Shown piece after piece: positions 6,555 through 25,393 of a stretch of 64,000 nt of DNA. Every line of letters starts with the position of its first letter. Position 1 is the first letter of the stretch. Both the position numbers and the translations under genes were made by a program. The notes beneath the pieces are model-generated. The model ran no database searches. It was not told the DNA's origin and saw nothing but the letters and a program-made list of their open reading frames with translations. This DNA is from an uncultured Bacilli bacterium (GTDB lineage: Bacteria > Bacillota_I > Bacilli_A > RF39 > UBA660). Location of the stretch: contig CAKOWU010000007.1 of assembly GCA_934129885.1 (NCBI GenBank), positions 13,566 to 77,565 on the forward strand, written 5' to 3'.

Positions 6555-6971
6555 CTATTCATAACTACTACTATAACCATCCGTACAGTAATCACTACCA
6601 CACTTTAAATATGGCACATAACTCATTTTACTATTGTCACGCCTATAAAAAACATAGCCATCACACTCTTTTCCCTTCTCATCAGTAAGCGTATTAATCA
6701 AATTTTTATCCTTTAAAGTATCTAAACTAACATACCCCTCATCTCCATTATCTAAAGGTTTATGATAATTCAAAACATACCCAGCTCCAGCACTCTTTAA
6801 AGTATTTTCTAAATCAACATAAGACTTACTACTAGGACCCTCAAAAATTTCTTTAAACGACTTATTATACATAAACATCGTTATAAATATACAAAGCATA
6901 ATAGTTACCAAAAAAAGCATACTTTCTTTTAAACCAAAACCATATTCATTCATCTTTTCATCCCCTAACAC
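6555..6971 (-). CDS. hypothetical membrane-anchored protein
   Basis: ORF with an N-terminal TM helix, translationally abutting the upstream ORF. No recognisable family. Confidence 0.55.
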   Translation of the reverse strand: MLGDEKMNEYGFGLKESMLFLVTIMLCIFITMFMYNKSFKEIFEGPSSKSYVDLENTLKSAGAGYVLNYHKPLDNGDEGYVSLDTLKDKNLINTLTDEKGKECDGYVFYRRDNSKMSYVPYLKCGSDYCTDGYSSSYE

Positions 6972-7468
6972 TACACCAAGGACTCTTTATTAAGAAGGAT
7001 CTTATCATATAGAATCGCAACACTTAAATTAAATGAAGGCTCACTTTCTATTTTAGTCATAAGTTCATCATATTTTTCTTCCTTTAAATAATCAGAAAAA
7101 AACGAAGAATCATAACTCTTTACCACCTTATTTTTCTTAAGAATAGTCTTTAAATACGAAATACTAGAAGATATATTTTTATAATTACCACTATCTTCAA
7201 AAATTTTAATAACCCTAATCATCTCAAAAGTTATAAGTTCATGACCATAATTACTCTTAAAATATTCATTTAAAAGTTTATACTGTTCCCTGTATTCTTC
7301 ATCATTAGTTAAATAATTAAAATCCTCATTATAAAGTGCAAGCACTAACTTTACAACATCATACTTTTTATAATCATACTTAACAGCCGTCTTTAAAATA
7401 GCCTTTGTAACGTTATTATATAATGAGTTAGAAAACTCCTGCTTTATTCGTATATCCTTGTAATTCAT
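6971..7468 (-). CDS. hypothetical protein
   Basis: 165-aa ORF co-oriented with ffh. No family recognised. Confidence 0.55.
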   Translation of the reverse strand: MNYKDIRIKQEFSNSLYNNVTKAILKTAVKYDYKKYDVVKLVLALYNEDFNYLTNDEEYREQYKLLNEYFKSNYGHELITFEMIRVIKIFEDSGNYKNISSSISYLKTILKKNKVVKSYDSSFFSDYLKEEKYDELMTKIESEPSFNLSVAILYDKILLNKESLV

Positions 7469-13466: not shown

Positions 13467-15443
13467 ATGTTAGAAATGGGTGATCGAATGAAAAAATACA
13501 AAAAAACAAAAATACTAATTATCTTCATTCTTTTACCCATATTAGTAATATTAAGTATTTATCTATATGCTTACATATCCCCAAAACTTTCAATAGATGG
13601 TGCGAATGGCTACTACTTATACGATAATACCCAAAAACTATATAATGGTAGTAATGAAGACTGGGCAAACCTAAACCAAATATCAAATAACTTAATAAAT
13701 GCTACCATTTCTATCGAAGATAAAAACTTTTACAAACATAAAGGCTTTGACCCCTTAAGAATAATAAAAGCCTTATTTATAAATATAAAATCAAACGCCA
13801 CCATCCAAGGTGCCTCCACAATATCCCAGCAATATTCAAAAAACCTATTTCTAGACTTCGATAAAACCTGGTCTAGAAAACTAAAAGAAGCCTGGATAAC
13901 AGTACGTCTAGAAACCCACTATACCAAAGACGAAATATTAGAAGGATATCTAAACACCATCAACTACGGTGGTATATTTGGTATCGAAAACGCCTCAAAC
14001 TATTACTTTGGTAAAAACTCGCATGACCTTACCCTCGCAGAAGCATCCATGTTAGCGGGTATCCCCAAAAACCCTAGTACCTACTCTCCACTTATAAATG
14101 AAGAAAAAGCCAAAAAAAGGCAAAAAAGCATTTTAAACTCCATGGTTATAAATGGCTATATTACAGAAGAAGACGCAAATGCAGCCTATAAAGAAAAATT
14201 AACCTATAAAAGTAAAGATGACTCTGCCAATCTAAAAATGATGATGTACTATCAGGACGCCGTTATGGATGAACTAGAATCATTAGAAGGACTTCCCGCT
14301 TCCTTTCTAGATACCGGAGGTCTTAAAATATATACAAATTTAGATACTAACGCTCAAAAGTTATTAGAAAAATCTGGGAACAAAAATATCACATCAGATG
14401 GTATTCAAATGGCTGCTGTTGCTATCGAGCCTACAACCGGTAAAGTAATAGCATTAACAGGCGGAATGGATTACAATAAAAGTGAATACAATCGTGCCAC
14501 CAAAAGCACCAGACAAGTAGGATCTACCATAAAACCTTTTCTATACTATTCAGCCCTAGAAAATGGTTTCACTCCTTCCACAACATTTACCAGTGAAAAA
14601 ACAACCTTTACATTTGATAACAATAAAACCTATACTCCTAAAAACTACAACAATGAATATCCAAACAAACAAATAAGTATGGCCGCTGCCATCGCCTATT
14701 CAGATAACATATATGCCGTAAAAACCCATCTATTTCTAGGAGAAAATAATCTCACAAACACTTTAAAAAGAGTTGGTATAACTAAAGAAGTAAAAAACCT
14801 ACCCTCACTAGCACTCGGTGCCGAAGAAATAAATCTAATGGAAATGATGGAAGGCTATACTACACTAGCAAGTGGTGGCAACAAAATTAAGCCATATTTT
14901 ATCTCCAAAGTAACCGATATGAAAGGCAATATTTTATACGAAAATACTGGGAAGCCAGAAAGCGCCCTAAACAAAAGTACCACATATATACTAAATGAAT
15001 TACTTACAACAACATACTCTAAAGAGTTTATTGACTATAACACACCAACATGCTACTCAATATCTCCTAAAATGAGTCATAAATACGCAATAAAAAGTGG
15101 TACCACTAATACAGATAACCTAATATTTGGATACAACAAAAATATATTAGTAGGAATGTGGACTGGATATGATACCAACAAAGAAGTGACAAACAAGGAC
15201 AGCGCCAACATAAAAAATGCTTGGATAGACTTTACCGAAAGTTACCTAGAAGACAAAGACAAAGAAAACGAATGGTATACCGTGCCAGAAAACGTCGTCG
15301 GTGTTGCTATTGACCCAATAAGTGGAAACATCGCAAATGCCACATCAAAAACTAAAATACTATACTATATTAAAGGAACAGAACCTAAAAAAGATAATTA
15401 TAGTCTAGAAGATACCATTCCAACAATAAAAGAGCAGAATTAG
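13467..15443 (+). CDS. class A penicillin-binding protein (glycosyltransferase + transpeptidase)
   Basis: GT51 motifs (EDKNFYKHKGFD, GASTISQQ, RKLKEAW) and transpeptidase STIKPF and KSGTT. ATG 13488 (MKKYKK) is an alternative start. Confidence 0.93.
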   Translation: MLEMGDRMKKYKKTKILIIFILLPILVILSIYLYAYISPKLSIDGANGYYLYDNTQKLYNGSNEDWANLNQISNNLINATISIEDKNFYKHKGFDPLRIIKALFINIKSNATIQGASTISQQYSKNLFLDFDKTWSRKLKEAWITVRLETHYTKDEILEGYLNTINYGGIFGIENASNYYFGKNSHDLTLAEASMLAGIPKNPSTYSPLINEEKAKKRQKSILNSMVINGYITEEDANAAYKEKLTYKSKDDSANLKMMMYYQDAVMDELESLEGLPASFLDTGGLKIYTNLDTNAQKLLEKSGNKNITSDGIQMAAVAIEPTTGKVIALTGGMDYNKSEYNRATKSTRQVGSTIKPFLYYSALENGFTPSTTFTSEKTTFTFDNNKTYTPKNYNNEYPNKQISMAAAIAYSDNIYAVKTHLFLGENNLTNTLKRVGITKEVKNLPSLALGAEEINLMEMMEGYTTLASGGNKIKPYFISKVTDMKGNILYENTGKPESALNKSTTYILNELLTTTYSKEFIDYNTPTCYSISPKMSHKYAIKSGTTNTDNLIFGYNKNILVGMWTGYDTNKEVTNKDSANIKNAWIDFTESYLEDKDKENEWYTVPENVVGVAIDPISGNIANATSKTKILYYIKGTEPKKDNYSLEDTIPTIKEQN

Positions 15444-16726
15444 TTAATATCTATCTGCTTCTTTTTTACTTTAGGAAATCCTTCCTCTAAAATAATACCA
15501 TTTGCAAAAAGTTTCAAATAACTTTCTCTATTCTCTTCATTAAAACTAGTAATACCGTATTTAGCAAGACTATCCATAAATACATTTTCTTTATCCACAC
15601 CAATACCAGTTTCAATCAAACTATTAAACATAGGGTCAACAATAAAATTTTTTGCTCCTTTTTTATCGTGGTAACAAACAGTAATATAATTATGATTTAA
15701 AACATCTTTACCTTGTTCACTAGTATTATGTAAAGCACAATCAATCCCCTCACTTACTAAACGAGAAAATATATGCAGGCTTATATCGTCATTCCATAAA
15801 TCATGACTAATACATTCTTTTTCTATTCTATTCTTCCATCCACTAGTTTGTTTTAATATTTGTTCTGGAATAGGAATATCACCATAAAGTTTTGGTTTGA
15901 TTCCTAGCTCAAAAATTGAATCACATATTTTATAATAATAAAACTGTATAATCGCCTCACAGTTATCACTATCATCTCCTATAGCCTTATTCATAGCCTT
16001 TTTATAAGCCATATCTTCATTTGTCGATATATAAATAGAAGGAAGTCCAACATTTAAAAATAGTTTATTAATAAAACCTCTAATACTCCTACCATTACCA
16101 TCCACAAACGGGTGTATCTTAATAAGTTTACATTTAAATCTTATACATGCATCAATATAATCAAATAGCTTCTCTGGCATTTCTGGTATCTGTTTAGCCA
16201 AAACCATAATATCCTCTAAATCATAATTAGCGTCCCTTAAAGCCGGCCAAATACTTAAATAATCCAAAAAATTAACCCTAGAGCCATTAATATGACAATC
16301 AGAATTTCTTGTATGACCACCAAACGTATAATCAGCATCATAATTATTATTTTGCACAATTTCTGCATCTATTACTGAATAAAGCTTTTGATGCAAATCA
16401 AGTAATGTATAAATATCAAAGTTATCATCTATTTCTGGTGAATGAATATATTCATACATTGCGGCCATGCCCTCTTTTTCCTGGTGACTATGACTACCTT
16501 CTAAAATAGCTTCGCATTCAATATAATGATTAACAAAATTATCAGTTAAATCATCCAAATTACGCTCACTCGCATCTAAAGAATAATAATAACGAATAAG
16601 ATTCTTCGGAATATCTAAATTTTCTTTTTGATATAGTATTCCCTCATCTTTCTGCTTTTCATATCCTGAAAATAACATAATAATAATATTTTCAAGTTCC
16701 CTACCACTTATTTTACCAATATTCAT
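15440..16726 (-). CDS. Fic-domain protein with canonical active-site motif
   Basis: IHPFVDGNGRSIRGF equals HPFxDGNGRxxR, embedded in a 428-aa protein with long flanking regions. Confidence 0.85.
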   Translation of the reverse strand: MNIGKISGRELENIIIMLFSGYEKQKDEGILYQKENLDIPKNLIRYYYSLDASERNLDDLTDNFVNHYIECEAILEGSHSHQEKEGMAAMYEYIHSPEIDDNFDIYTLLDLHQKLYSVIDAEIVQNNNYDADYTFGGHTRNSDCHINGSRVNFLDYLSIWPALRDANYDLEDIMVLAKQIPEMPEKLFDYIDACIRFKCKLIKIHPFVDGNGRSIRGFINKLFLNVGLPSIYISTNEDMAYKKAMNKAIGDDSDNCEAIIQFYYYKICDSIFELGIKPKLYGDIPIPEQILKQTSGWKNRIEKECISHDLWNDDISLHIFSRLVSEGIDCALHNTSEQGKDVLNHNYITVCYHDKKGAKNFIVDPMFNSLIETGIGVDKENVFMDSLAKYGITSFNEENRESYLKLFANGIILEEGFPKVKKKQIDIN

Positions 16727-17868: not shown

Positions 17869-18801
17869 TTATTTTTTTAACTTTTTTGAATAAATATGAA
17901 GAAAATCTAACTTAGTTTCATCATCCTCATATATTAAATCAGATAAATCAATAGCTTTATCCAAATTTAAAGGAGCATGAGTGACATTACCTTTTTGTTT
18001 AGATATCATTCTATCTATATACTCCTCATCAAAATTAGGACTCATAGAATAATCTAATAATGATTGATAGAATTTTACAAGTTGTTGCCAATGTAAAGGC
18101 TTTAATGTTCCATTCGCACATCTAAATTCTATGGTATTTTTACCAGTTGGTTTAATTACCTCATCTCTCAAATTAGCTATATTCAAAGCCGAACTTCTAG
18201 CTAAATAAAGATAATCTAATACCGTTTTATACCTTTTACCTCTCGCACATTCTAGCAATTCCAATACAAAATCAAGGCCCATACTCACTGGAACTGAATA
18301 CCTTTCAATAGATTCTCGTGGTCCTTTACCAAAATAACCAAAATTAAATATTACATCTTCATAAGCAATCCAAAGTTTATAAAGGTTTAATAAATAATAT
18401 GGATCACTTGCAAACTCTGTTCCATCTATATGAACATGAGCCCCGCACTTATTAGTAATAAAATAATTCATCATCTTTATTTCCTTACATACATTTTTTA
18501 ATTCTTTCCACGTTTCTTTTGTATCTGATAAAATAGGTGAAACAAACTCATAGCCAATTATTTCTTCACTATAATCATTTATAGAACGGTCATTAACAAA
18601 CTGCCACGAAGTCTTATATAACTTCTTATTAGGAAATATCCTATCAGTACCATCAACTACATTTTCATCAAATTCCAAAAAATTTTCAGTATGTTCCATA
18701 CTTCCAACTTCTATTTCAACACCAAAAGATCTTTTAACACACATTATTTTTTTATATTTAGGTTTATGCTTTTGGATTTCATCTAATCTATACTTTTTCA
18801 T
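17869..18801 (-). CDS. amidoligase-like (Amidoligase_2 / glutamine-synthetase-fold) enzyme
   Basis: FGVEIEVGS, GYEFVSPIL, CGAHVHID and NTIEFRCANGTL occur in the order typical of the putative amidoligase family. Starts 55 nt downstream of the RT stop. Confidence 0.7.
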   Translation of the reverse strand: MKKYRLDEIQKHKPKYKKIMCVKRSFGVEIEVGSMEHTENFLEFDENVVDGTDRIFPNKKLYKTSWQFVNDRSINDYSEEIIGYEFVSPILSDTKETWKELKNVCKEIKMMNYFITNKCGAHVHIDGTEFASDPYYLLNLYKLWIAYEDVIFNFGYFGKGPRESIERYSVPVSMGLDFVLELLECARGKRYKTVLDYLYLARSSALNIANLRDEVIKPTGKNTIEFRCANGTLKPLHWQQLVKFYQSLLDYSMSPNFDEEYIDRMISKQKGNVTHAPLNLDKAIDLSDLIYEDDETKLDFLHIYSKKLKK

Positions 18802-18856: not shown

Positions 18857-19960
18857 TCATAACTTAAGTCTATATAAAAACTCTCTAGCATTTGCCATCA
18901 TAAAATATCCCTTATAGCTAGCCTTTACAAGTTCGTATTTTTTACCACCTTTCCTCTTTAACCTGCGTAACTTTCTTTTTATCCTTTTTTTATTTTGATT
19001 ACGAAGTAAAACAATTAACCTTTTCTCCTTTAATACAAATTTATACCCAAGAAAATCAAAACCTTTATTCAAATCATAAATTTGAGTTTTAATATTTAAT
19101 TCTAACTTAAGTTTATGTACCTCATCCCCTATTATTTTCAAAACTTCTTTTAAATACTCTTTATCATGGTGAACAATTAAAAAATCATCCATATAACGTA
19201 CATAATTTTTTATCCTTAACTTTTCCTTAATGAAATGATCAAAATCACTTAAATAATAAATTGCCAATATCTGACTAGTTTCATTCCCAATAGGTAACCC
19301 CTTACCATTTTTATATCTAGGTAAATAACTCAGTTCCTTTTTTTTCTTATCTAAATCAGTAAGACCCATTTGCGTAATACGAGCAATTTCTCTCTTAACC
19401 GCACTATCAATAAATTTATTAACCTCAACCTTCTCTGTACTTTCTATAATATTTTTTACCACGTTGTATATATCAGGATCAGTAATATCTTTTCTTAACT
19501 TATTAAGCAATATTTCATGATCAATATTATAAAAATATTTACTTATATCACACTTTAAAACATATAACTTATCAAAATTTTCTTTTTCTCTATTTATAAA
19601 CTTTTTTAAATACTCTATTCCTTTTTTAGTACCCATACCTTTCCTTGTCGCAACATTAGTATTTATAAATTTTTTTTCTAAACTAGGCAGTAAAGCATAA
19701 TGACTAATCAAATGATTAACAATTTTATCACCCAAAGTCTCACTCATAATAATACGATATTTTGGTTCCTTTATTAAAAATACATTATAATGATGGTGAT
19801 TATACTCTTTTCTTCTTAAAATATCTAATATATATACAATATTACTGGTAAAAGCTAGTTCAAATCGAACTAGCTTCTCTTTGTGACATGTATTCGTGCG
19901 AATATTCTCATACACATTTTTTATCTTATCAATAGATAGTAAATCTTCGTACTTAACCAT
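18857..19960 (-). CDS. reverse transcriptase, DGR type
   Basis: RT motifs LKCDISKYFYNIDH and YVRYMDDFLIV (YMDD), plus the DGR-specific motif-4 signature LPIGNETSQ ([I/L]GxxxSQ). Its ATG overlaps the stop of the upstream ORF (TAATG). Confidence 0.9.
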   Translation of the reverse strand: MVKYEDLLSIDKIKNVYENIRTNTCHKEKLVRFELAFTSNIVYILDILRRKEYNHHHYNVFLIKEPKYRIIMSETLGDKIVNHLISHYALLPSLEKKFINTNVATRKGMGTKKGIEYLKKFINREKENFDKLYVLKCDISKYFYNIDHEILLNKLRKDITDPDIYNVVKNIIESTEKVEVNKFIDSAVKREIARITQMGLTDLDKKKKELSYLPRYKNGKGLPIGNETSQILAIYYLSDFDHFIKEKLRIKNYVRYMDDFLIVHHDKEYLKEVLKIIGDEVHKLKLELNIKTQIYDLNKGFDFLGYKFVLKEKRLIVLLRNQNKKRIKRKLRRLKRKGGKKYELVKASYKGYFMMANAREFLYRLKL

Positions 19961-20595
19961 TACTTAACACCACTTAAATAATAACTTTTATTTGACTTAT
20001 CATATACAAAAGTTTTACTTGTACCCTTATCTAAAACATCATTTAAAGTGTCCTCATTATAGTCTCCTATCTCTTCAGATGCTAAATTATAAACCTTATC
20101 GTCCCGAGCATATCCAAACTTAACATCTACAAGTAACTGGTCAATGCTGTAACTATACCCAAATAATTTTGAAACATATTTTGTATCACAATTATCTGTT
20201 TTCTCCCTTGTAATCTTATCACCAGATAAAGTATATTTATAACCACCATAAACAAACTCATTAAAAGTTACATCTTTATTACCAGCTACTGCCTTAATAG
20301 CCTTATTATAACTTTCTACATTAATACTATCACTTAATAACTTATCATTTTTCATCATTGAAAACGCCATATAAATAATCGCATCATTTTCATTATTGGC
20401 ATTTCCTAAAGTAGTGCACTCATCAGCCATAATATTTTCATAAAGAGTATCAACGACATCATGCTTTACAGTTTCCTTCTGTGCAAGTTCATCACTATCA
20501 TCCTTCTTTACTAATACAAAGGTCAAAAATATAATAATAATTACTATAACAAATACTATAGCGATAATAACTTTCTTATTTTTTAACTTCTCCAT
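19960..20595 (-). CDS. hypothetical membrane-anchored protein between avd and RT
   Basis: 211 aa with an N-terminal TM helix (VIIAIVFVIVIIIIFLTFVLV). Overlaps the avd end by 20 nt and the RT start by 1 nt. No family recognised. Confidence 0.65.
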   Translation of the reverse strand: MEKLKNKKVIIAIVFVIVIIIIFLTFVLVKKDDSDELAQKETVKHDVVDTLYENIMADECTTLGNANNENDAIIYMAFSMMKNDKLLSDSINVESYNKAIKAVAGNKDVTFNEFVYGGYKYTLSGDKITREKTDNCDTKYVSKLFGYSYSIDQLLVDVKFGYARDDKVYNLASEEIGDYNEDTLNDVLDKGTSKTFVYDKSNKSYYLSGVK

Positions 20596-20938
20596 TTATA
20601 TCATTCCTTTTTTTTAATCCATAAATCATTTTTCTAATCTCTGTAAAAAACCTTCCTAAAACTTCAAACTGATGTTTACTAATAATTTTTTTATCATATG
20701 AAACTCTAACATAAAAATCTAACATCGATGTCTTAATGAGCATATCTTTCAAATTCTTTTCTCTAATTCTATCAGTATCATTAATACTGTATGCAAAAAC
20801 AAGTTCAACTAACTGATAACAAGCCTGCTCTATATTATTACTTAAAATCATTTCTCTTTTAGGGTAATTTATTAATAACTTGTTAAAATAATTAACTGTT
20901 TTATAAATATTATTTAGTATTTTAAAATTGTAATTCAT
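20576..20938 (-). CDS. avd: Avd-like four-helix-bundle protein (accessory variability determinant / 23S rRNA IVS protein family)
   Basis: 120 aa from ATG 20938, with AAGGTGA 5 nt upstream. Pattern YPKREMILSNNIEQACYQLVELVFAY is typical of this helical family. Sits beside a DGR-type RT. Confidence 0.72.
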   Translation of the reverse strand: MNYNFKILNNIYKTVNYFNKLLINYPKREMILSNNIEQACYQLVELVFAYSINDTDRIREKNLKDMLIKTSMLDFYVRVSYDKKIISKHQFEVLGRFFTEIRKMIYGLKKRNDINGEVKK

Positions 20939-21015
20939 AATTTCACCTTTTAATAATTGTGTGGCGAAAGGGAAAGCAATAAAATCAAAGATGACCCTAA
21001 CCCACCGATATAGCA

Positions 21016-21206
21016 ATAGTTATATAAACACACTCGCAGTTATATAACGTCTATATCATCTTTTTAGGCATATGCCAAGGAATTAACCTTGTTTCCAATC
21101 TGAATAAGATTATTGCCAAAATGGCAACTACTTCCTCTCGTTATTAGCCTTAACCAAATAACATCACGGTTCATTAGTAAATAATTACTAATCGTAGTAG
21201 GAAATT
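21016..21206 (-). promoter_or_regulatory. structured non-coding leader between the cassette array and avd
   Basis: Palindromes GGCATATGCC (21067-21076), CAAGGAATTAACCTTG (21076-21091) and TTGCCAAAATGGCAA (21113-21127). Direct repeat AGTTATATAA x2 (about 21019-21050). Function unknown. Confidence 0.3.
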
Positions 21207-21207
21207 G

Positions 21208-21312
21208 GGCGGACGCCGAGACTATTCCACGTATTAGTTTCGTTCAAGTTACCCGTACTACCCAGATATAACTCGTTAGCGTTAAACCTGTTGTTATAGT
21301 TAGACGGCGACA
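21208..21312 (-). repeat. silent cassette C1 (Asn/AAC-rich, template-like)
   Basis: Box GGCGGACGCCG to box GACGGCGACA spans 105 nt. Minus-strand frame: VSPS-NYNNRFNANELYLGSTGNLNETNTWNSL-GVRP, with 9 Asn (7 AAC). Confidence 0.85.
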
Positions 21313-21364
21313 CCTATAAACCACCATACATTAAGGTTAATCCCTATTACCCTTTTGGAAAATG

Positions 21365-21469
21365 GGCGGACGCCGAGCCAATTGTTAGTATCCCAGTTAT
21401 CGAACTCACCAGAATCACGCACCATAATCTCGTTAGCGTTGAACCAGTTATTGAAGTGGAACGGCGACA
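21365..21469 (-). repeat. silent cassette C2 (Asn/AAC-rich, template-like)
   Basis: 105 nt box to box. VSPF-HFNNWFNANEIMVRDSGEFDNWDTNNWL-GVRP, with 7 Asn (5 AAC). Confidence 0.85.
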
Positions 21470-21518
21470 CACAAAACCTTACTCTAAAGTTAATCCCTAT
21501 ATCTTTTTTTTGGAAAGT

Positions 21519-21623
21519 GGCGGACGCCGATCGTATTCCAAGTGTTCCAATTATCCATAGAACCTATAGAATTAACGATATACTCGTTAGCATTGAACCA
21601 ATTGTTGAAAAGAGACGGCGACA
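21519..21623 (-). repeat. silent cassette C3 (Asn-rich, template-like)
   Basis: 105 nt box to box. VSPS-LFNNWFNANEYIVNSIGSMDNWNTWNTI-GVR, with 8 Asn. Confidence 0.85.
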
Positions 21624-21671
21624 CATACAACCTATCTTAAGGTTAATCCCTAATATTCTTTTTCGGAAAGT

Positions 21672-21776
21672 GGCGGACGCCGAGCCAGCTAGCGGGGTCC
21701 CACTCAATAATAGAACCATTCTCATGTACTAAAAACACATTAGAAGCAAGCCAACTATCAAAAAGGGACGGCGACA
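21672..21776 (-). repeat. silent cassette C4 (Asn-poor, diversified-looking)
   Basis: 105 nt box to box. MSPS-LFDSWLASNVFLVHENGSIIEWDPASWL-GVR. Confidence 0.85.
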
Positions 21777-21823
21777 TCCATAGCCTCATCTTAAGATTAA
21801 TCCCTATATCTTTTTTGGAAAGT

Positions 21824-21928
21824 GGCGGACGCCGAGCTCATTCCAAACATTCCAATCATTCATAGAACCCACAGCATGCACTGCAATCTCAGGAGCAGCG
21901 AGCCAATCTTTGAAACGAGACGGCGACA
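21824..21928 (-). repeat. silent cassette C5 (Asn-poor, diversified-looking)
   Basis: 105 nt box to box. MSPS-RFKDWLAAPEIAVHAVGSMNDWNVWNEL-GVR. Confidence 0.85.
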
Positions 21929-21976
21929 TCTATAACCTATCTTAAGATTAATTCCTAATATCCTTCTTGGAAATTG

Positions 21977-22081
21977 GGCGGACGCCGTACCATGAATGCA
22001 TACTAAAGAAATCAATAGCACCAGATACACTTATGAAAAGCCCATAAGAGGTCTGCCAATGATCAAAGCGGGACGGCGACA
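21977..22081 (-). repeat. silent cassette C6, identical to the expressed variable module
   Basis: 105 nt box to box. VSPS-RFDHWQTSYGLFISVSGAIDFFSMHSWY-GVRP. Positions 21976-22081 equal 22542-22647 (106/106 nt). Confidence 0.9.
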
Positions 22082-22129
22082 CACATACCTTAATTTAAGA
22101 TTAACACCTATATTCTTTTTTGGAAATTG

Positions 22130-22234
22130 GGCGGACGCCGTAAGTATTCCACACATTAGTTCCATAAAGGTAACCTAAACTACCCAGATAAAACATGCTA
22201 GCATAAAAGCCATAATGGAAAACGGACGGCGACA
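22130..22234 (-). repeat. silent cassette C7 (Asn-poor, diversified-looking)
   Basis: 105 nt box to box. LSPS-VFHYGFYASMFYLGSLGYLYGTNVWNTY-GVRP. Confidence 0.85.
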
Positions 22235-22400
22235 AATCGCACATAATTTTAGGTTAATCCTTACTCGGAAAATTTTTTTATTGCTATGAAGCAATATCCT
22301 ATATCCAAGTTTTAAATTATGGGGGCATCCTTTTTATTTATCTTGCGGTCCCCCATGCCCATTATTTATTTATCACTCTCCACACATCATATTCATCGCG

Positions 22401-22428
22401 GGACAAAAATGATGAGTCATTTTTGTCC
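22401..22428 (-). promoter_or_regulatory. perfect 12-bp stem / 4-nt loop hairpin downstream of the target gene
   Basis: GGACAAAAATGA-TGAG-TCATTTTTGTCC. No U-tract follows on either strand, so it is not a typical intrinsic terminator. Confidence 0.5.
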
Positions 22429-22455
22429 ATCAATGTTCTGATTATATTTCATGAA

Positions 22456-22479
22456 ATGTGGTTTCTTACGAAACCACAT
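22456..22479 (-). promoter_or_regulatory. 10-bp stem hairpin whose tetraloop contains the target-gene stop codon
   Basis: ATGTGGTTTC-TTAC-GAAACCACAT. On the coding strand the loop is GTAA (GNRA-type), and its TAA is the stop of the 975-aa ORF. Confidence 0.5.
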
Positions 22480-25393
22480 ATGGATCTTCTTTCGTACCTG
22501 TTCCAGTAAATGTCAGATTATCAGTATTCAGATTGAGAACCGGGCGGACGCCGTACCATGAATGCATACTAAAGAAATCAATAGCACCAGATACACTTAT
22601 GAAAAGCCCATAAGAGGTCTGCCAATGATCAAAGCGGGACGGCGACATGGTCCAATAGTTCGTACCACTGTATAGATAATAGAGGGAGTTCATGGCTCCT
22701 GCCATTCCCCCTGCCATATTTACTTCATCGGCTGTAATTAAACCAATAGCCTTTGTCAAAGAGCCGTTACTGATGCTATACTCATCATCTGAATTACATA
22801 ATAACGTTGGTCCCTTAGGTGAACCACCCCAATTCCAAAATCTTTCATAACCATAAATAGTAGGTGTTATTCCGTATCCTGTATTCTTATAAGTACCAGA
22901 CTGAAGTGTTGATATATTTTTATTATTACAATATGTCGTATTCTTTGAGAACTTATCTGTATAACTAGATAAATTACTATCATACCAACTATCCAAATAA
23001 GTTTTTATAGTACTATTAGTTACTTTCGCAAATGCCCCTTCTTTCGAAGTAGAACCATAGCCTTTGCCACTTACTGTCATAGATGAAGAACTCACATATT
23101 TTTTTGTATAAAACAAACGCTGACATGAATTGTTTTTATTAGTATCGAAGCAAGTATAATACCCTACCTTATCAGTGGCTAATGTTCCACTAATTAAATC
23201 ACCAGAAACCTTATAACTTTTAGTACTCTTATCGAACGTATAACTAGTTCCAAAATAATACTTTGATGTAGAAGATAAACCAGTATAATTAAATGTTAAA
23301 TCTCCACTATCAGTCTGTACAAAATTACTTTCGTCTCCATACATATACCCAACATAAGCATTATCATTAATATATGAATTAAAAGCCCTAGTACCGACCT
23401 GTCTATCACTAGTCGATTCTCCATTAGGATGTGCACTAGAGCCATCATATATCATTCTAACAGAGCCATCACCATTTACCCTTATTATTCTCCAATATTT
23501 ATTCGCAAACTTAACATAGTTACCACCAACAGAACCACGATAATAATAAGTATCCCCATCATTATCAGTACCTGCATACATGCCAACATCTTTAGTATCA
23601 TAACTTGCCATATTCTGTGTATAGTTATACTTAGTAAATGTATAAGTTTTAGTACCAGTAGTAGAATTAGTACTCGCACTTACACTAGATATCTTATACA
23701 TAGTAGACGCTATAGTATTCCAATTTTGTCCAAGCGTATAATATGTAGTACTAGTATAATCAAGATTACCAGGTTCAACAGTACTACCACCAGTTATTTG
23801 ATACATACCAGTATTAGTATTAAACGTATAACCAGTACCTATATATACATCAGATAAAGTCGTTGACCAAGTTGATAAACTAGTCGCAGCCTTTTCACTA
23901 TAACTTAATTTAGGCGAAGTACTTGTAAAACTTGGAGTACCTTTAGCCTTAATAGTACTTTTCGCAGACGTAATATCAGTATCCTTTGCCTCACTCGCAA
24001 TAACACAATCCCCTAAATCAGTAATACCATTCTTTTCACAGTAACTTTTATGCTTTATAGCAGTCGTTCCCGCTTTAGTAGAAGAAGTATTTCCCGCCTT
24101 ATCTTGAACATAAACATTAACTATATACTCACCCTCTGATAAAGACGTAAACGTATAATTAGCGTTTTCGCTAGAAGTATATGTCTGTCCACCATCTTTA
24201 CTATAATAGTAAGTATTAAGGCCACTATCCTTATCAGAAGCATTTACCTCTACCGTCATAGTATCATCATCAGGAGTAACCGTTACACTATTTACCGTTG
24301 GATCAACGTTATCTACTAAATAACTATCCGAACACTGTTCAGTACTGTTACCAACTCTGTCAGTAGCCTTAAAACATAACTTTTGCTCACTACTACTTCC
24401 ATCAAAAACATAATTAAAAGTATTATCATCCGATAAAGTAGCCTCTTTAGTAGGAGTACATGTTTCATCTGTAGTTACACAATATAAAAACGTTTTTATT
24501 TTATCATTATCTGTTACTGTATTTGTTAGGGTAACCGCCTTATTCCAATTATTATTACCTTGTATTATTTCTTTTTCTTCTATTTTTATGGTTGGTTTAG
24601 TAGTATCTATAGTTTTAGTAGTAGATGTTGATACTACAACATTACCATCTTTATCTTCAGCCTTAACATATATAGTATAGTTGGTATTAGGAGTTAGATC
24701 AGTTAAAATATAGTTATCATTCATGCTGGTATACCATTTATCATTATCGTATGAATAATAATAATTTACAGCATCTGTAGCACTTACTCTTACATTTATT
24801 CTATTTTCTTCTGGGGTTAAGGAAATACCTGCGATAGATAGGTTATCAATAGAGGGAGCATCTGCACCTGAAAATTCTGTTTTACTACCTTCTTGGACAA
24901 AATTTAAATCGGCGGTTATATCAAAGGTTTTATTACCTACACTTGTAGTTACATTTTCATCATATGTGATAGTGACATAAAAGGTTTTACTATCACCTGA
25001 TTTTAAAACATCACCAGAACTGATATCCTCTATTTTAGATTTTAGGATGCTGGAGTCATTCATATTTATTTTAATATAGTCTAAGGCAGCATTTAGTGTC
25101 CCTTCATTAGATACAGTAATGGCGTATTTAGCACTATCACCTGGAGACTTAAAATTTACATTCATAGATGCGTTAAGTTCACTAAAAGTGGCATCACTTT
25201 CTTCGGTAGCCATGCCAGTTAATTTTTCTAATTTTATATTTGTTATTACTACTTTCCATTTTGTAGAAATACTGCTGGTACCTTTAATATCAAGTTGACT
25301 GCTAAAAGCAGAATAGCCTACTGCCATCAAAGTCATAATTCCAAGCATAAAAACAATTAGATAATTTTTCCTTATCATGTCTCTTCTTCTCAT
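22466..25393 (-). CDS. large secreted/surface protein, putative DGR target (Ig/FN3-like repeats plus C-terminal 'YW..SP...GVRP' binding module)
   Basis: N-terminal signal/anchor (LIVFMLGIMTLMAVGYSAF). Repeated beta-sandwich-like units (NYTIYVKAEDKDGN, EYIVNVYVQDKAGN, KATDRVGN). GAGG RBS before ATG 25393. The C-terminal region is homologous to the 59452 paralogue. Confidence 0.85.
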   Translation of the reverse strand: MRRRDMIRKNYLIVFMLGIMTLMAVGYSAFSSQLDIKGTSSISTKWKVVITNIKLEKLTGMATEESDATFSELNASMNVNFKSPGDSAKYAITVSNEGTLNAALDYIKINMNDSSILKSKIEDISSGDVLKSGDSKTFYVTITYDENVTTSVGNKTFDITADLNFVQEGSKTEFSGADAPSIDNLSIAGISLTPEENRINVRVSATDAVNYYYSYDNDKWYTSMNDNYILTDLTPNTNYTIYVKAEDKDGNVVVSTSTTKTIDTTKPTIKIEEKEIIQGNNNWNKAVTLTNTVTDNDKIKTFLYCVTTDETCTPTKEATLSDDNTFNYVFDGSSSEQKLCFKATDRVGNSTEQCSDSYLVDNVDPTVNSVTVTPDDDTMTVEVNASDKDSGLNTYYYSKDGGQTYTSSENANYTFTSLSEGEYIVNVYVQDKAGNTSSTKAGTTAIKHKSYCEKNGITDLGDCVIASEAKDTDITSAKSTIKAKGTPSFTSTSPKLSYSEKAATSLSTWSTTLSDVYIGTGYTFNTNTGMYQITGGSTVEPGNLDYTSTTYYTLGQNWNTIASTMYKISSVSASTNSTTGTKTYTFTKYNYTQNMASYDTKDVGMYAGTDNDGDTYYYRGSVGGNYVKFANKYWRIIRVNGDGSVRMIYDGSSAHPNGESTSDRQVGTRAFNSYINDNAYVGYMYGDESNFVQTDSGDLTFNYTGLSSTSKYYFGTSYTFDKSTKSYKVSGDLISGTLATDKVGYYTCFDTNKNNSCQRLFYTKKYVSSSSMTVSGKGYGSTSKEGAFAKVTNSTIKTYLDSWYDSNLSSYTDKFSKNTTYCNNKNISTLQSGTYKNTGYGITPTIYGYERFWNWGGSPKGPTLLCNSDDEYSISNGSLTKAIGLITADEVNMAGGMAGAMNSLYYLYSGTNYWTMSPSRFDHWQTSYGLFISVSGAIDFFSMHSWYGVRPVLNLNTDNLTFTGTGTKEDPYVVS
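22543..22647 (-). other. expressed variable module (VR-like) of the surface protein
   Basis: Same two GC-rich boxes as the cassettes, 105 nt apart. Encodes MSPS...YGVRP (codons 916-950, ending 25 codons before the stop). Confidence 0.85.

Follow-up and report, generated by a model that had tools for sequence, protein, structure and literature searches.

The locus described here lies in a 64,000-nucleotide stretch of DNA from an uncultured Bacilli bacterium (contig CAKOWU010000007.1 of assembly GCA_934129885.1; this whole 64-kb stretch is referred to as the window, and positions are given in its numbering). On the minus strand we observed, in this order, a target gene with a variable repeat (VR), a hairpin, seven units each made of a 5′ motif and a 105-nt cassette (read from C7 to C1), a structured RNA of ∼250 nt, avd (accessory variability determinant), a gene for a 211-aa protein and a gene for a reverse transcriptase (RT) of the type found in diversity-generating retroelements (DGRs). 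The data presented below make it highly probable that the array consists of tandem alternative template repeats (TRs) of a chromosomal DGR, in which many templates serve one VR and the templates are themselves mutable.

The cassettes are bounded by two short boxes. The 11-nt box GGCGGACGCCG occurs eight times in the window (plus-strand positions 21208, 21365, 21519, 21672, 21824, 21977, 22130 and 22543), compared to 0.02 copies expected by chance, and eight copies were reached in none of 100 shuffled sequences. The second box, A or G followed by ACGGCGACA, ends at 21312, 21469, 21623, 21776, 21928, 22081, 22234 and 22647, with C2 having the variant AACGGCGACA. From box to box, all eight copies measure exactly 105 nt. 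Seven of them stand in tandem (21208-22234), with start-to-start distances of 157, 154, 153, 152, 153 and 153, and the eighth (22543-22647) is located inside a gene of 975 aa. These measurements confirm an original prediction, made from the letters of this DNA, of seven tandem units with identical boundary boxes at 152-157 bp; the conserved spacers, predicted to be of 45-52 nt, measured 47-52 nt. Each unit has the predicted stop-free frame on the minus strand, (M/V/L)SP(S/F)...GVR, but the following Pro codon is present only in C1, C2, C6 and C7, being replaced by His in C3-C5. The frame also matches that of the module in the neighboring gene, as had been proposed, the eighth copy being in frame within the 975-aa open reading frame (ORF). 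The array cassettes sit outside any long ORF, and a search with a cassette profile found no further copies in the 64 kb.

That the array might be an assembly artefact had been raised together with the prediction, and this possibility was checked. At least 10 independent metagenome assemblies, made by two pipelines, contain this very array, and a comparable array of a related species (locus L017) lies on a HiFi-assembled chromosome. Therefore, the array is a real feature and not an artefact of assembly.

Richness in adenine and in AAY (Asn) codons is a hallmark of DGR template repeats. C1 (21208-21312; 30 A and 9 AAY codons), C2 (21365-21469; 23 A and 7 AAY) and C3 (21519-21623; 26 A and 8 AAY) are template repeats of this AAY-rich kind, C1 being the last of the array and adjoining the structured RNA. 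C4 (21672-21776; 15 A), C5 (21824-21928; 17 A), C6 (21977-22081; 16 A and no AAY) and C7 (22130-22234; 18 A and 2 AAY) are adenine-depleted. Compared to the 23-30 A and 7-9 AAY codons of C1-C3, these four hold 15-18 A and 0-3 AAY codons. C7 is nearest to C1 and C5 to C3, C6 is identical to the VR of the window, and the core of C4 was unchanged in all 10 strains examined.

The target gene (22466-25393, minus strand) encodes a surface-type protein of 975 aa having an N-terminal hydrophobic segment, Ig-like/PKD/fn3-like repeats (Pfam matches Big_13/PKD/fn3) and a C-terminal DUF6273-like domain that carries the VR. A perfect TTGACA-18-TATAAT site is present upstream of the gene (25505-25476). The VR (22543-22647, minus strand) is 105 nt long, is in frame, encodes SPSRFDHWQTSYGLFISVSGAIDFFSMHSWYGVR and ends 26 codons before the stop codon. 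At its 3′ boundary (22535-22553, minus strand) the GC-rich box CGGCGTCCGCC is followed by a VR-specific flank, CGGTTCTC, which codes for PVL. After the same CGGCGTCCGCC, all seven array cassettes carry CAATTTCC, CATTTTCC or ACTTTCC. This split between VR-type and cassette-type 3′ flanks holds in all relatives and, by analogy, resembles the initiation of mutagenic homing (IMH) element and its counterpart IMH* in the Bordetella phage system, the VR boundary being IMH-like and the cassette flanks IMH*-like.

The RT gene (18857-19960, minus strand) encodes 367 aa with YMDD and IGNETSQ (LPIGNETSQ) motifs and matches RVT_1 at an E of 1.6e-18; none of the NCBIfam RT models reached its cutoff for this protein. 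GNETSQ is unchanged in 20 relatives. RT relatives of 58-66% identity come from uncultured gut Bacilli, among them Firmicutes bacterium CAG:822, "Tenericutes" metagenome-assembled genomes (MAGs) and Ca. Coprosoma. The avd gene (20576-20938, minus strand; 120 aa) matches Pfam bAvd with 47.8 bits (cutoff 40), and NCBIfam DivGenRetAVD with 44 bits, under the cutoff of 80. The earlier assignment of the array to these avd and RT genes is upheld. RNase P class B and tmRNA, found elsewhere in the window, point to a chromosomal setting.

Donors of the variable repeat in strains and related species

Conspecific strains were found on many metagenome contigs by the exact RT protein of the window, which is identical in all of them. 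The VR of each was compared with the cassettes, and changed adenine sites as well as non-A changes were counted. C2 is the donor in L052, L062 and L063, with 8, 10 and 2 of its 23 adenine sites changed, respectively, and no non-A change. It is also the donor in L053, where 10 of the 23 sites are changed along with one non-A change, a G-to-T that makes a stop codon. In L061 the donor is the strain's own C1 allele (12 of 30 adenine sites, no non-A change), and in L054 it is C3 (11 of 26, two non-A changes). The VRs of the window, L051 and L060 go with C6, having neither any of its 16 adenine sites nor any other position changed. Hence C1, C2 and C3 have each templated the single VR with almost only adenine changes, which argues for DGR retrohoming from alternative TRs. 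Untemplated changes at donor adenines were observed in six of the seven distinct VR alleles of the species, the one exception being the C6-type allele, a faithful copy. The target protein belongs to a 90% cluster of 14 members, whose seven distinct VR alleles agree with those defined at the nucleotide level.

The content of the array was also compared between strains, as had been proposed with the prediction. It varies by whole units with the frame kept: L062 and L063 have an eighth cassette of 102 nt, L052 is devoid of C6, L053 is devoid of three units, and L061 has a hybrid junction. Point changes that differ between strains were seen in C7, among them GVR to GVC (L052 and L061). The claim of an exact 105-nt length holds for all units of the window but is not universal, as seen from the 102-nt cassettes of conspecific strains and from related arrays in which 105-nt and 108-nt cassettes stand side by side.

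A lineage with a premature stop codon was observed among these strains (L053 and the proteins P0123 and P0130; 8 contigs). Its C2-derived VR has GAG changed to TAG, a non-adenine change, by which the target is cut to 936 aa, and this allele persists over several samples.

For generality, the cassette profile was run on 50 loci around relatives of the RT, 17 of which are complete. Eleven of these 17 hold 2-8 TR-type cassettes, while six survey loci are ordinary, with the VR and one TR. In the multi-cassette loci, exactly one array cassette matches the VR apart from 5-20 adenine sites and 0-1 other sites, and adenine-specific TR/VR differences were found in ∼15 related loci. An internal cassette served as donor in L002, L006, L008, L016, L017 and L064, the last of which was the informative one of two loci returned by a metagenome pattern scan.

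A sister species (RT P0073; loci L066-L071) has a five-slot array. At the nucleotide level, slot b was the VR donor in three loci (L067, L068 and L071), slot d in L066 and slot a in L069, with non-A changes always being zero. Lengths of the VR and of the protein follow the donor (108 versus 105 nt; 912 versus 911 aa). At the protein level, the 15 VR alleles of the protein cluster are assigned to slots b (6), d (5), a (2) and e (2), and altogether four of the five slots (a, b, d and e) have been used as donors.

The slots of this second species also change. Slot d of L069 has been overwritten in its interior with the exact sequence of slot b, with 20 of 20 differences switched, none of 29 adenines changed and the slot-specific flanks kept. 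The VR donor of the same locus is the partly depleted slot a, 5 of its 21 adenine sites being changed. In L070, slots b and d carry the same two A-to-N substitutions, and the VR derives from a slot-d template that is gone from the array of that strain. The slot changes of L069 and L070 indicate that array slots are recipients as well as donors and that copying is both faithful and adenine-mutagenic. Any IMH/IMH* block must therefore be leaky, since array slots sometimes act as recipients.

The adenine-depleted cassettes of the window fit into this picture as follows. Differences between C4-C7 and C1-C3 concentrate at adenine sites (50-77% versus 16-41%; Fisher p of 3e-4 to 0.08), and no adenine-site bias is seen among C1-C3 themselves. 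That C4-C7 are plain VR copies of C1-C3 was ruled out by 13-34 non-A differences. Their sequences rather suggest a signature of adenine mutagenesis laid over an older divergence. C4-C7 are nevertheless stable, as seen from the unchanged core of C4 and from C6, which is also found in strains of divergent background that have a C2- or C3-derived VR.

RNA elements of the array

The structured RNA (20959-21207, minus strand; ∼250 nt, hereafter the long element) lies 3′ of the last cassette in a single copy for the whole array, and is a candidate for a functional analogue of the DGR spacer/priming RNA. It is kept across species, and its consensus fold has 61 pairs, 27 of them with compensatory changes. 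It has no Rfam match at the gathering score, nor any at E up to 1.

Seven 5′ motifs, A(A/G)G(G/A/T)(A/G)TTAAYYT, are distributed over 21334-22262 on the minus strand (22251-22262, 22098-22109, 21945-21956, 21794-21805, 21640-21651, 21487-21498 and 21334-21345), one being located 27-32 nt upstream of each cassette. They are complementary to AAGGTTAATTCC of the long element, inside which their partner, GGAAACAAGGTTAATTCCTTGG (21075-21096, minus strand), covaries with them. Across loci, the motif GGGRYTAAYCT is found 22-36 nt upstream of every TR-type cassette, single or arrayed, and is complementary to AAGGTTARTYCC in the long element. TR-type cassettes reach 11-12 of 12 pairs with the long element, compared to 7-9 for VRs. 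Over 25 distinct combinations of motif and partner, this docking helix is 97% paired, a fraction somewhat inflated by the picking of motif windows for best pairing, and changes on both sides were observed in 6 of the 12 pairs. None of 500 shuffles was as good, and slid controls were far lower. The compensatory substitutions, which are unaffected by the choice of windows, include T/A to C/G, C/G to T/A, A/T to G/C and a matched one-base deletion.

Each spacer between cassettes is composed of three parts, the TR-type 3′ flank (CCAATTTCC and variants), an A-rich linker and the docking motif of the next cassette. A second contact with the long element is predicted on the other side of the cassette, where AUUUCCU immediately 3′ of it could pair with GAGAGGAAGTAG (21128-21139, minus strand). 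In the consensus fold, AUUUCCU just after the cassette is paired with AGGAAGU of the long element, and UUUCC is present in all short spacers. An alternative CUACU/AGUAG pairing exists, which internal spacers do not have.

Two kinds of arrays were observed. In short-spacer arrays (window, L002, L004, L006, L008, L012, L016, L017, L020 and L025) the long element comes only after the last cassette, while in long-unit arrays (L010, L014, L018 and L019) each cassette has its own. As a working hypothesis from the modeled fold, the UUUCC/GGAAG pairing may bring internal cassettes of the former kind to the priming site.

A conserved hairpin, GGACAAAAATGACTCATCATTTTTGTCC with the core AAAATGACTCWTCATTTT (22401-22428, minus strand), is located 3′ of the target stop codon. 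The base of its stem covaries between loci, the foot being GGTC/GACC, GGAC/GTCC or GGGC/GCCC across species, and it has no T-run. In L004, L006, L009, L012, L013, L020, L022, L025 and L038 the same core is also found shortly before the first cassette. This hairpin may be the counterpart of the hairpin/cruciform that aids DGR target recognition, or may be an attenuator before the array.

Interpretation and rival explanations

Among the features that define a DGR, the RT type, an Avd beside RT and TR, and a VR near the 3′ end of the target ORF together with non-coding TRs were all observed here. Adenine-specific TR/VR differences were observed in the conspecific strains (2-12 adenine-site versus 0-2 non-A changes) and in the related loci, and not within the window.

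We propose the following scheme. The array would be transcribed, probably via read-through from the target promoter. On the minus strand from 20947 to 22675, the scan found no sigma-70-like promoter at 9/12 or better, in agreement with the predicted promoterless state of the array, and a perfect one is present upstream of the target. The 5′ motif of any one cassette, perhaps with the UUUCC that comes after it, would pair with the single downstream scaffold RNA, and this pairing would present the chosen cassette to RT-Avd. The cDNA, having misincorporations at template adenines, would then replace the VR between the two conserved boxes, with the 3′ GC-rich box and flank acting as IMH/IMH* and the 5′ box giving homology. 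Most simply, C4-C7 would be slots that were themselves overwritten by mutagenised copies, and the identity of C6 and VR would come from a faithful transfer between slot and VR in either direction, by gene conversion or by error-free homing. The net outcome would be a two-tier diversification, through choice of the template scaffold and through adenine mutagenesis.

Apart from the inflated pairing fraction mentioned above, several observations speak against this proposal. Inside the window the VR and C6 are 100% identical over 105 nt, ending exactly at the boxes, and the VR equals C6 at all 16 adenines, so that the window alone holds no adenine-specific TR/VR difference. No VR allele of the species was found to be an A-mutagenised derivative of C4, C5 or C7. 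The 3′ end of the L054 VR, ACT TAC, is that of C7 and not of its donor C3; this three-base match is the sole hint of C7 use, and as a sequence it hints at mosaic events. The UUUCC/GGAAG helix is invariant, and hence without support from covariation. Internal cassettes of short-spacer arrays are used as donors though they have no long element of their own, and the route by which they would be primed is hypothetical. A C-type lectin fold is typical of DGR targets. For the target described here, a PDB sequence search for this fold gave a chance match only, and a Foldseek search of its AF2 model (pLDDT 81) against PDB returned no match at E below 2. The top BFVD matches of the model are DUF6273 proteins, at weak E values of 0.06-0.6. 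The DUF6273 match of the sequence itself is also weak (3.5e-4, below the gathering score), with 28 of 48 homologues matching.

The array could also be regarded as a rewritable library of templates, in which VR variants are written back into slots, faithfully or with A-to-N changes, and are later reused as templates. The identity of C6 and VR, the depleted yet frame-perfect C4-C7, the depleted slot that served as donor in L069 and the overwriting of slots in L069 and L070 are all compatible with such write-back. We consider this extension tentatively, as it is on the whole rather doubtful.

Among the rival explanations, the one that survives best takes the equality of VR and C6 as a consensus artefact. 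C6 would then be an active TR, and assemblers would have threaded a hyperdiverse VR population through unmutated k-mers. If fewer than half of the adenines are changed per event, the unmutated base would be locally the commonest, and the C6 locus would, as we infer, add k-mer coverage; moreover, the identity is known from assemblies alone. However, 14 contigs, which come from two assembly pipelines and represent two protein backgrounds, have the exact C6-type VR, and the other VR alleles of the species recur unchanged in 4-8 contigs. Such recurrence indicates clonal, slowly changing VRs and not hyperdiverse populations, which makes the artefact unlikely.

Somewhat less likely still is a silent-cassette system independent of the RT, in which the promoterless array donates segments via RecA-type gene conversion and the DGR genes are incidental or secondary. 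Antigenic variation by silent cassettes is known from Borrelia (vlsE and the vls cassettes) and Neisseria (pilE and pilS). As in these systems, promoterless partial-gene cassettes adjoin one expressed gene, the exchanged segment lies between short conserved direct repeats and is replaced non-reciprocally, and the expression site holds one exact cassette copy, that of C6, with none of 16 adenines changed and the identity bounded by the short boxes. The faithful slot-to-slot copy of the sister species (L069; none of 29 adenines changed) also points in this direction. On the other hand, faithful mosaics without untemplated changes, as expected of such a system, were not what we observed. All other VR alleles, both here and in the ∼15 related loci, differ from their donors nearly only at adenines, which gene conversion cannot yield, and the structured RNA associated with the DGR covaries with an RNA motif borne by every cassette. 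Unlike vlsE/vls and pilE/pilS, the locus also has an RT and Avd, most of its transfers come with untemplated adenine changes, and its cassettes bear docking motifs at the RNA level. Faithful conversion therefore probably coexists with retrohoming and is not the main process.

It is very improbable that the units are decaying tandem duplications of the TR/VR region without present function, one cassette being the real TR. The loss of most AAY codons from C4-C7, the strain-specific point changes of C7 (GVR to GVC in L052 and L061) and the deletion of whole units in some strains would agree with decay. Against this, three cassettes are proven donors in this species and four of five in the second one, all cassettes retain the frame, both boxes and the covarying 5′ motif, the C4 core is identical in 10 strains, and multi-cassette arrays are present in 11 of the 17 related loci.

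In the last rival, each cassette would be a small ORF (41-56 aa) that is translated into a peptide. This reading could draw on the ATG, GTG or TTG starts of the window cassettes, their 35 open codons and the purine-rich stretch, AGG or GAGG, found 7-10 nt before several of them. It was rejected as having next to no likelihood, as the NTG is just the codon for Met in the target's WTMSPS motif, the cassettes of L002, L017 and L064 begin with (T/S/C)TPS and have no in-frame start codon, and AAY templates cannot become stops via adenine changes, so that open frames are expected without translation.

The original prediction had taken the units for exchangeable coding modules under selection. They are indeed exchangeable and frame-matched, but instead of being selected as free-standing ORFs they are, in all likelihood, DGR template repeats read as RNA. 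They are not coding cassettes, because VRs differ from C1-C3 almost only at adenines, the RNA motifs covary and the cassettes of L002 are without start codons; the exact identity of C6 and VR is the sole observation that speaks for simple cassette swapping.

The DGR of Bordetella phage BPP-1 comprises the VR of mtd, avd, one TR and brt. Like it, the present locus has an RT and Avd, a VR at the 3′ end of a gene for a surface or ligand-binding protein, AAY-rich templates with adenine-specific TR-to-VR differences, a GC-rich 3′ element in both repeats whose flanks diverge between donor and recipient (here IMH-like versus IMH*-like), and a structured RNA beside the TR. Unlike BPP-1, seven tandem TRs (1-8 in relatives) serve one VR, one structured RNA is common to the short-spacer array, the TRs lie between target and avd, a gene for an extra membrane protein is conserved, and TR slots are overwritten, so that templates are not invariant. 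In logic alone, and as an analogy, the choice of arrayed donors combined with point mutagenesis at one expressed site is like the pseudo-V gene conversion and hypermutation of chicken and rabbit immunoglobulin genes. The machinery and the kingdom are unrelated, and no homology is implied.

In a textbook DGR, each variable region has a single template, protected and invariant, and the search space is fixed, because it is set by the non-adenine positions and the length of that template. The gut Bacilli clade described here has up to eight alternative templates per variable region, and multiple templates enlarge the accessible sequence space combinatorially. It offers a natural strain series in which the choice of template varies, the displayed loop changes its length along with the template, templates are overwritten, and a covarying docking motif stands before every template. 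As a natural system, it also lends itself to the questions of how RT-Avd picks a template and primes on it, and of what shields a TR from self-homing. For DGR-based directed evolution it suggests a compact multi-template design, with ∼150 nt per added template and one shared scaffold. If the library reading were true, the retroelement could evolve in a cumulative way, with its earlier solutions kept as a heritable memory, as opposed to restarting from one invariant master template.

DGRs with more than one TR per RT are on record. PMC11661182 gives 53 DGRs with at least two TRs, and PMC6642488 reports two TRs and six VRs in Stenotrophomonas sp. SKA14. The present locus is like these cases in having more than one TR per RT. 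In those reports the architecture is either listed unanalysed, or the TRs are paired with several VRs or targets; unlike them, many tandem TRs here serve a single VR, and strain-level evidence of template choice, length switching and intra-array overwriting is added. The literature searched has passing mentions of DGRs with at least two TRs and no description of tandem alternative TRs for one VR, of a shared scaffold RNA or of rewritten TR slots; earlier work elsewhere is possible.

Other features of the locus

The gene for the 211-aa protein (19960-20595, minus strand) lies between avd and the RT gene, overlapping each by a few bases, and its product has an N-terminal transmembrane segment. 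It has the same position in 18 related loci, with 33-51% identity, and searches against protein families gave no significant match. It may be a clade-specific DGR accessory protein.

An Amidoligase_2 gene (17869-18801, minus strand) is located directly 3′ of the RT gene, with a perfect promoter-like TTGACA-16-TATAAT at 18855-18828. None of the 50 related loci has this gene, which makes a relation to the DGR unlikely. Fic/DOC-domain proteins are also encoded near the locus (15440-16726, minus strand, in the window; 20151-20693 in L051), with no link to the DGR seen.

An insertion of ∼130 nt, which most relatives do not have, separates the conserved hairpin from the first docking motif and contains a second GC-rich hairpin, ATGGGGG...CCCCCAT (22319-22356, minus strand). 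This second hairpin is possibly a terminator or an attenuator affecting read-through into the array. Two other terminator-like matches were not taken as terminators, that at 21128-21112 being the conserved hairpin of the structured RNA and that at 21779-21766 being the 5′ box of C4.

The contigs of many short-read MAGs end at or near the cassette array (L003, L005, L012, L015, L038, L055 and L056), and public assemblies and DGR surveys therefore probably contain too few such arrays, or truncated ones. Finally, loci of the CAG:822 type have two copies of the long element (6940-7200 and 8120-8370 in L002), with an extra cassette of atypical 3′ flank after the second one (from 8382 onward in L002; L064; L065; from 8394 onward in L017). 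This extra cassette is followed in L064 and L065 by a degenerate one that has stop codons, and then by another long element. Such an arrangement suggests duplicated or nested template modules.

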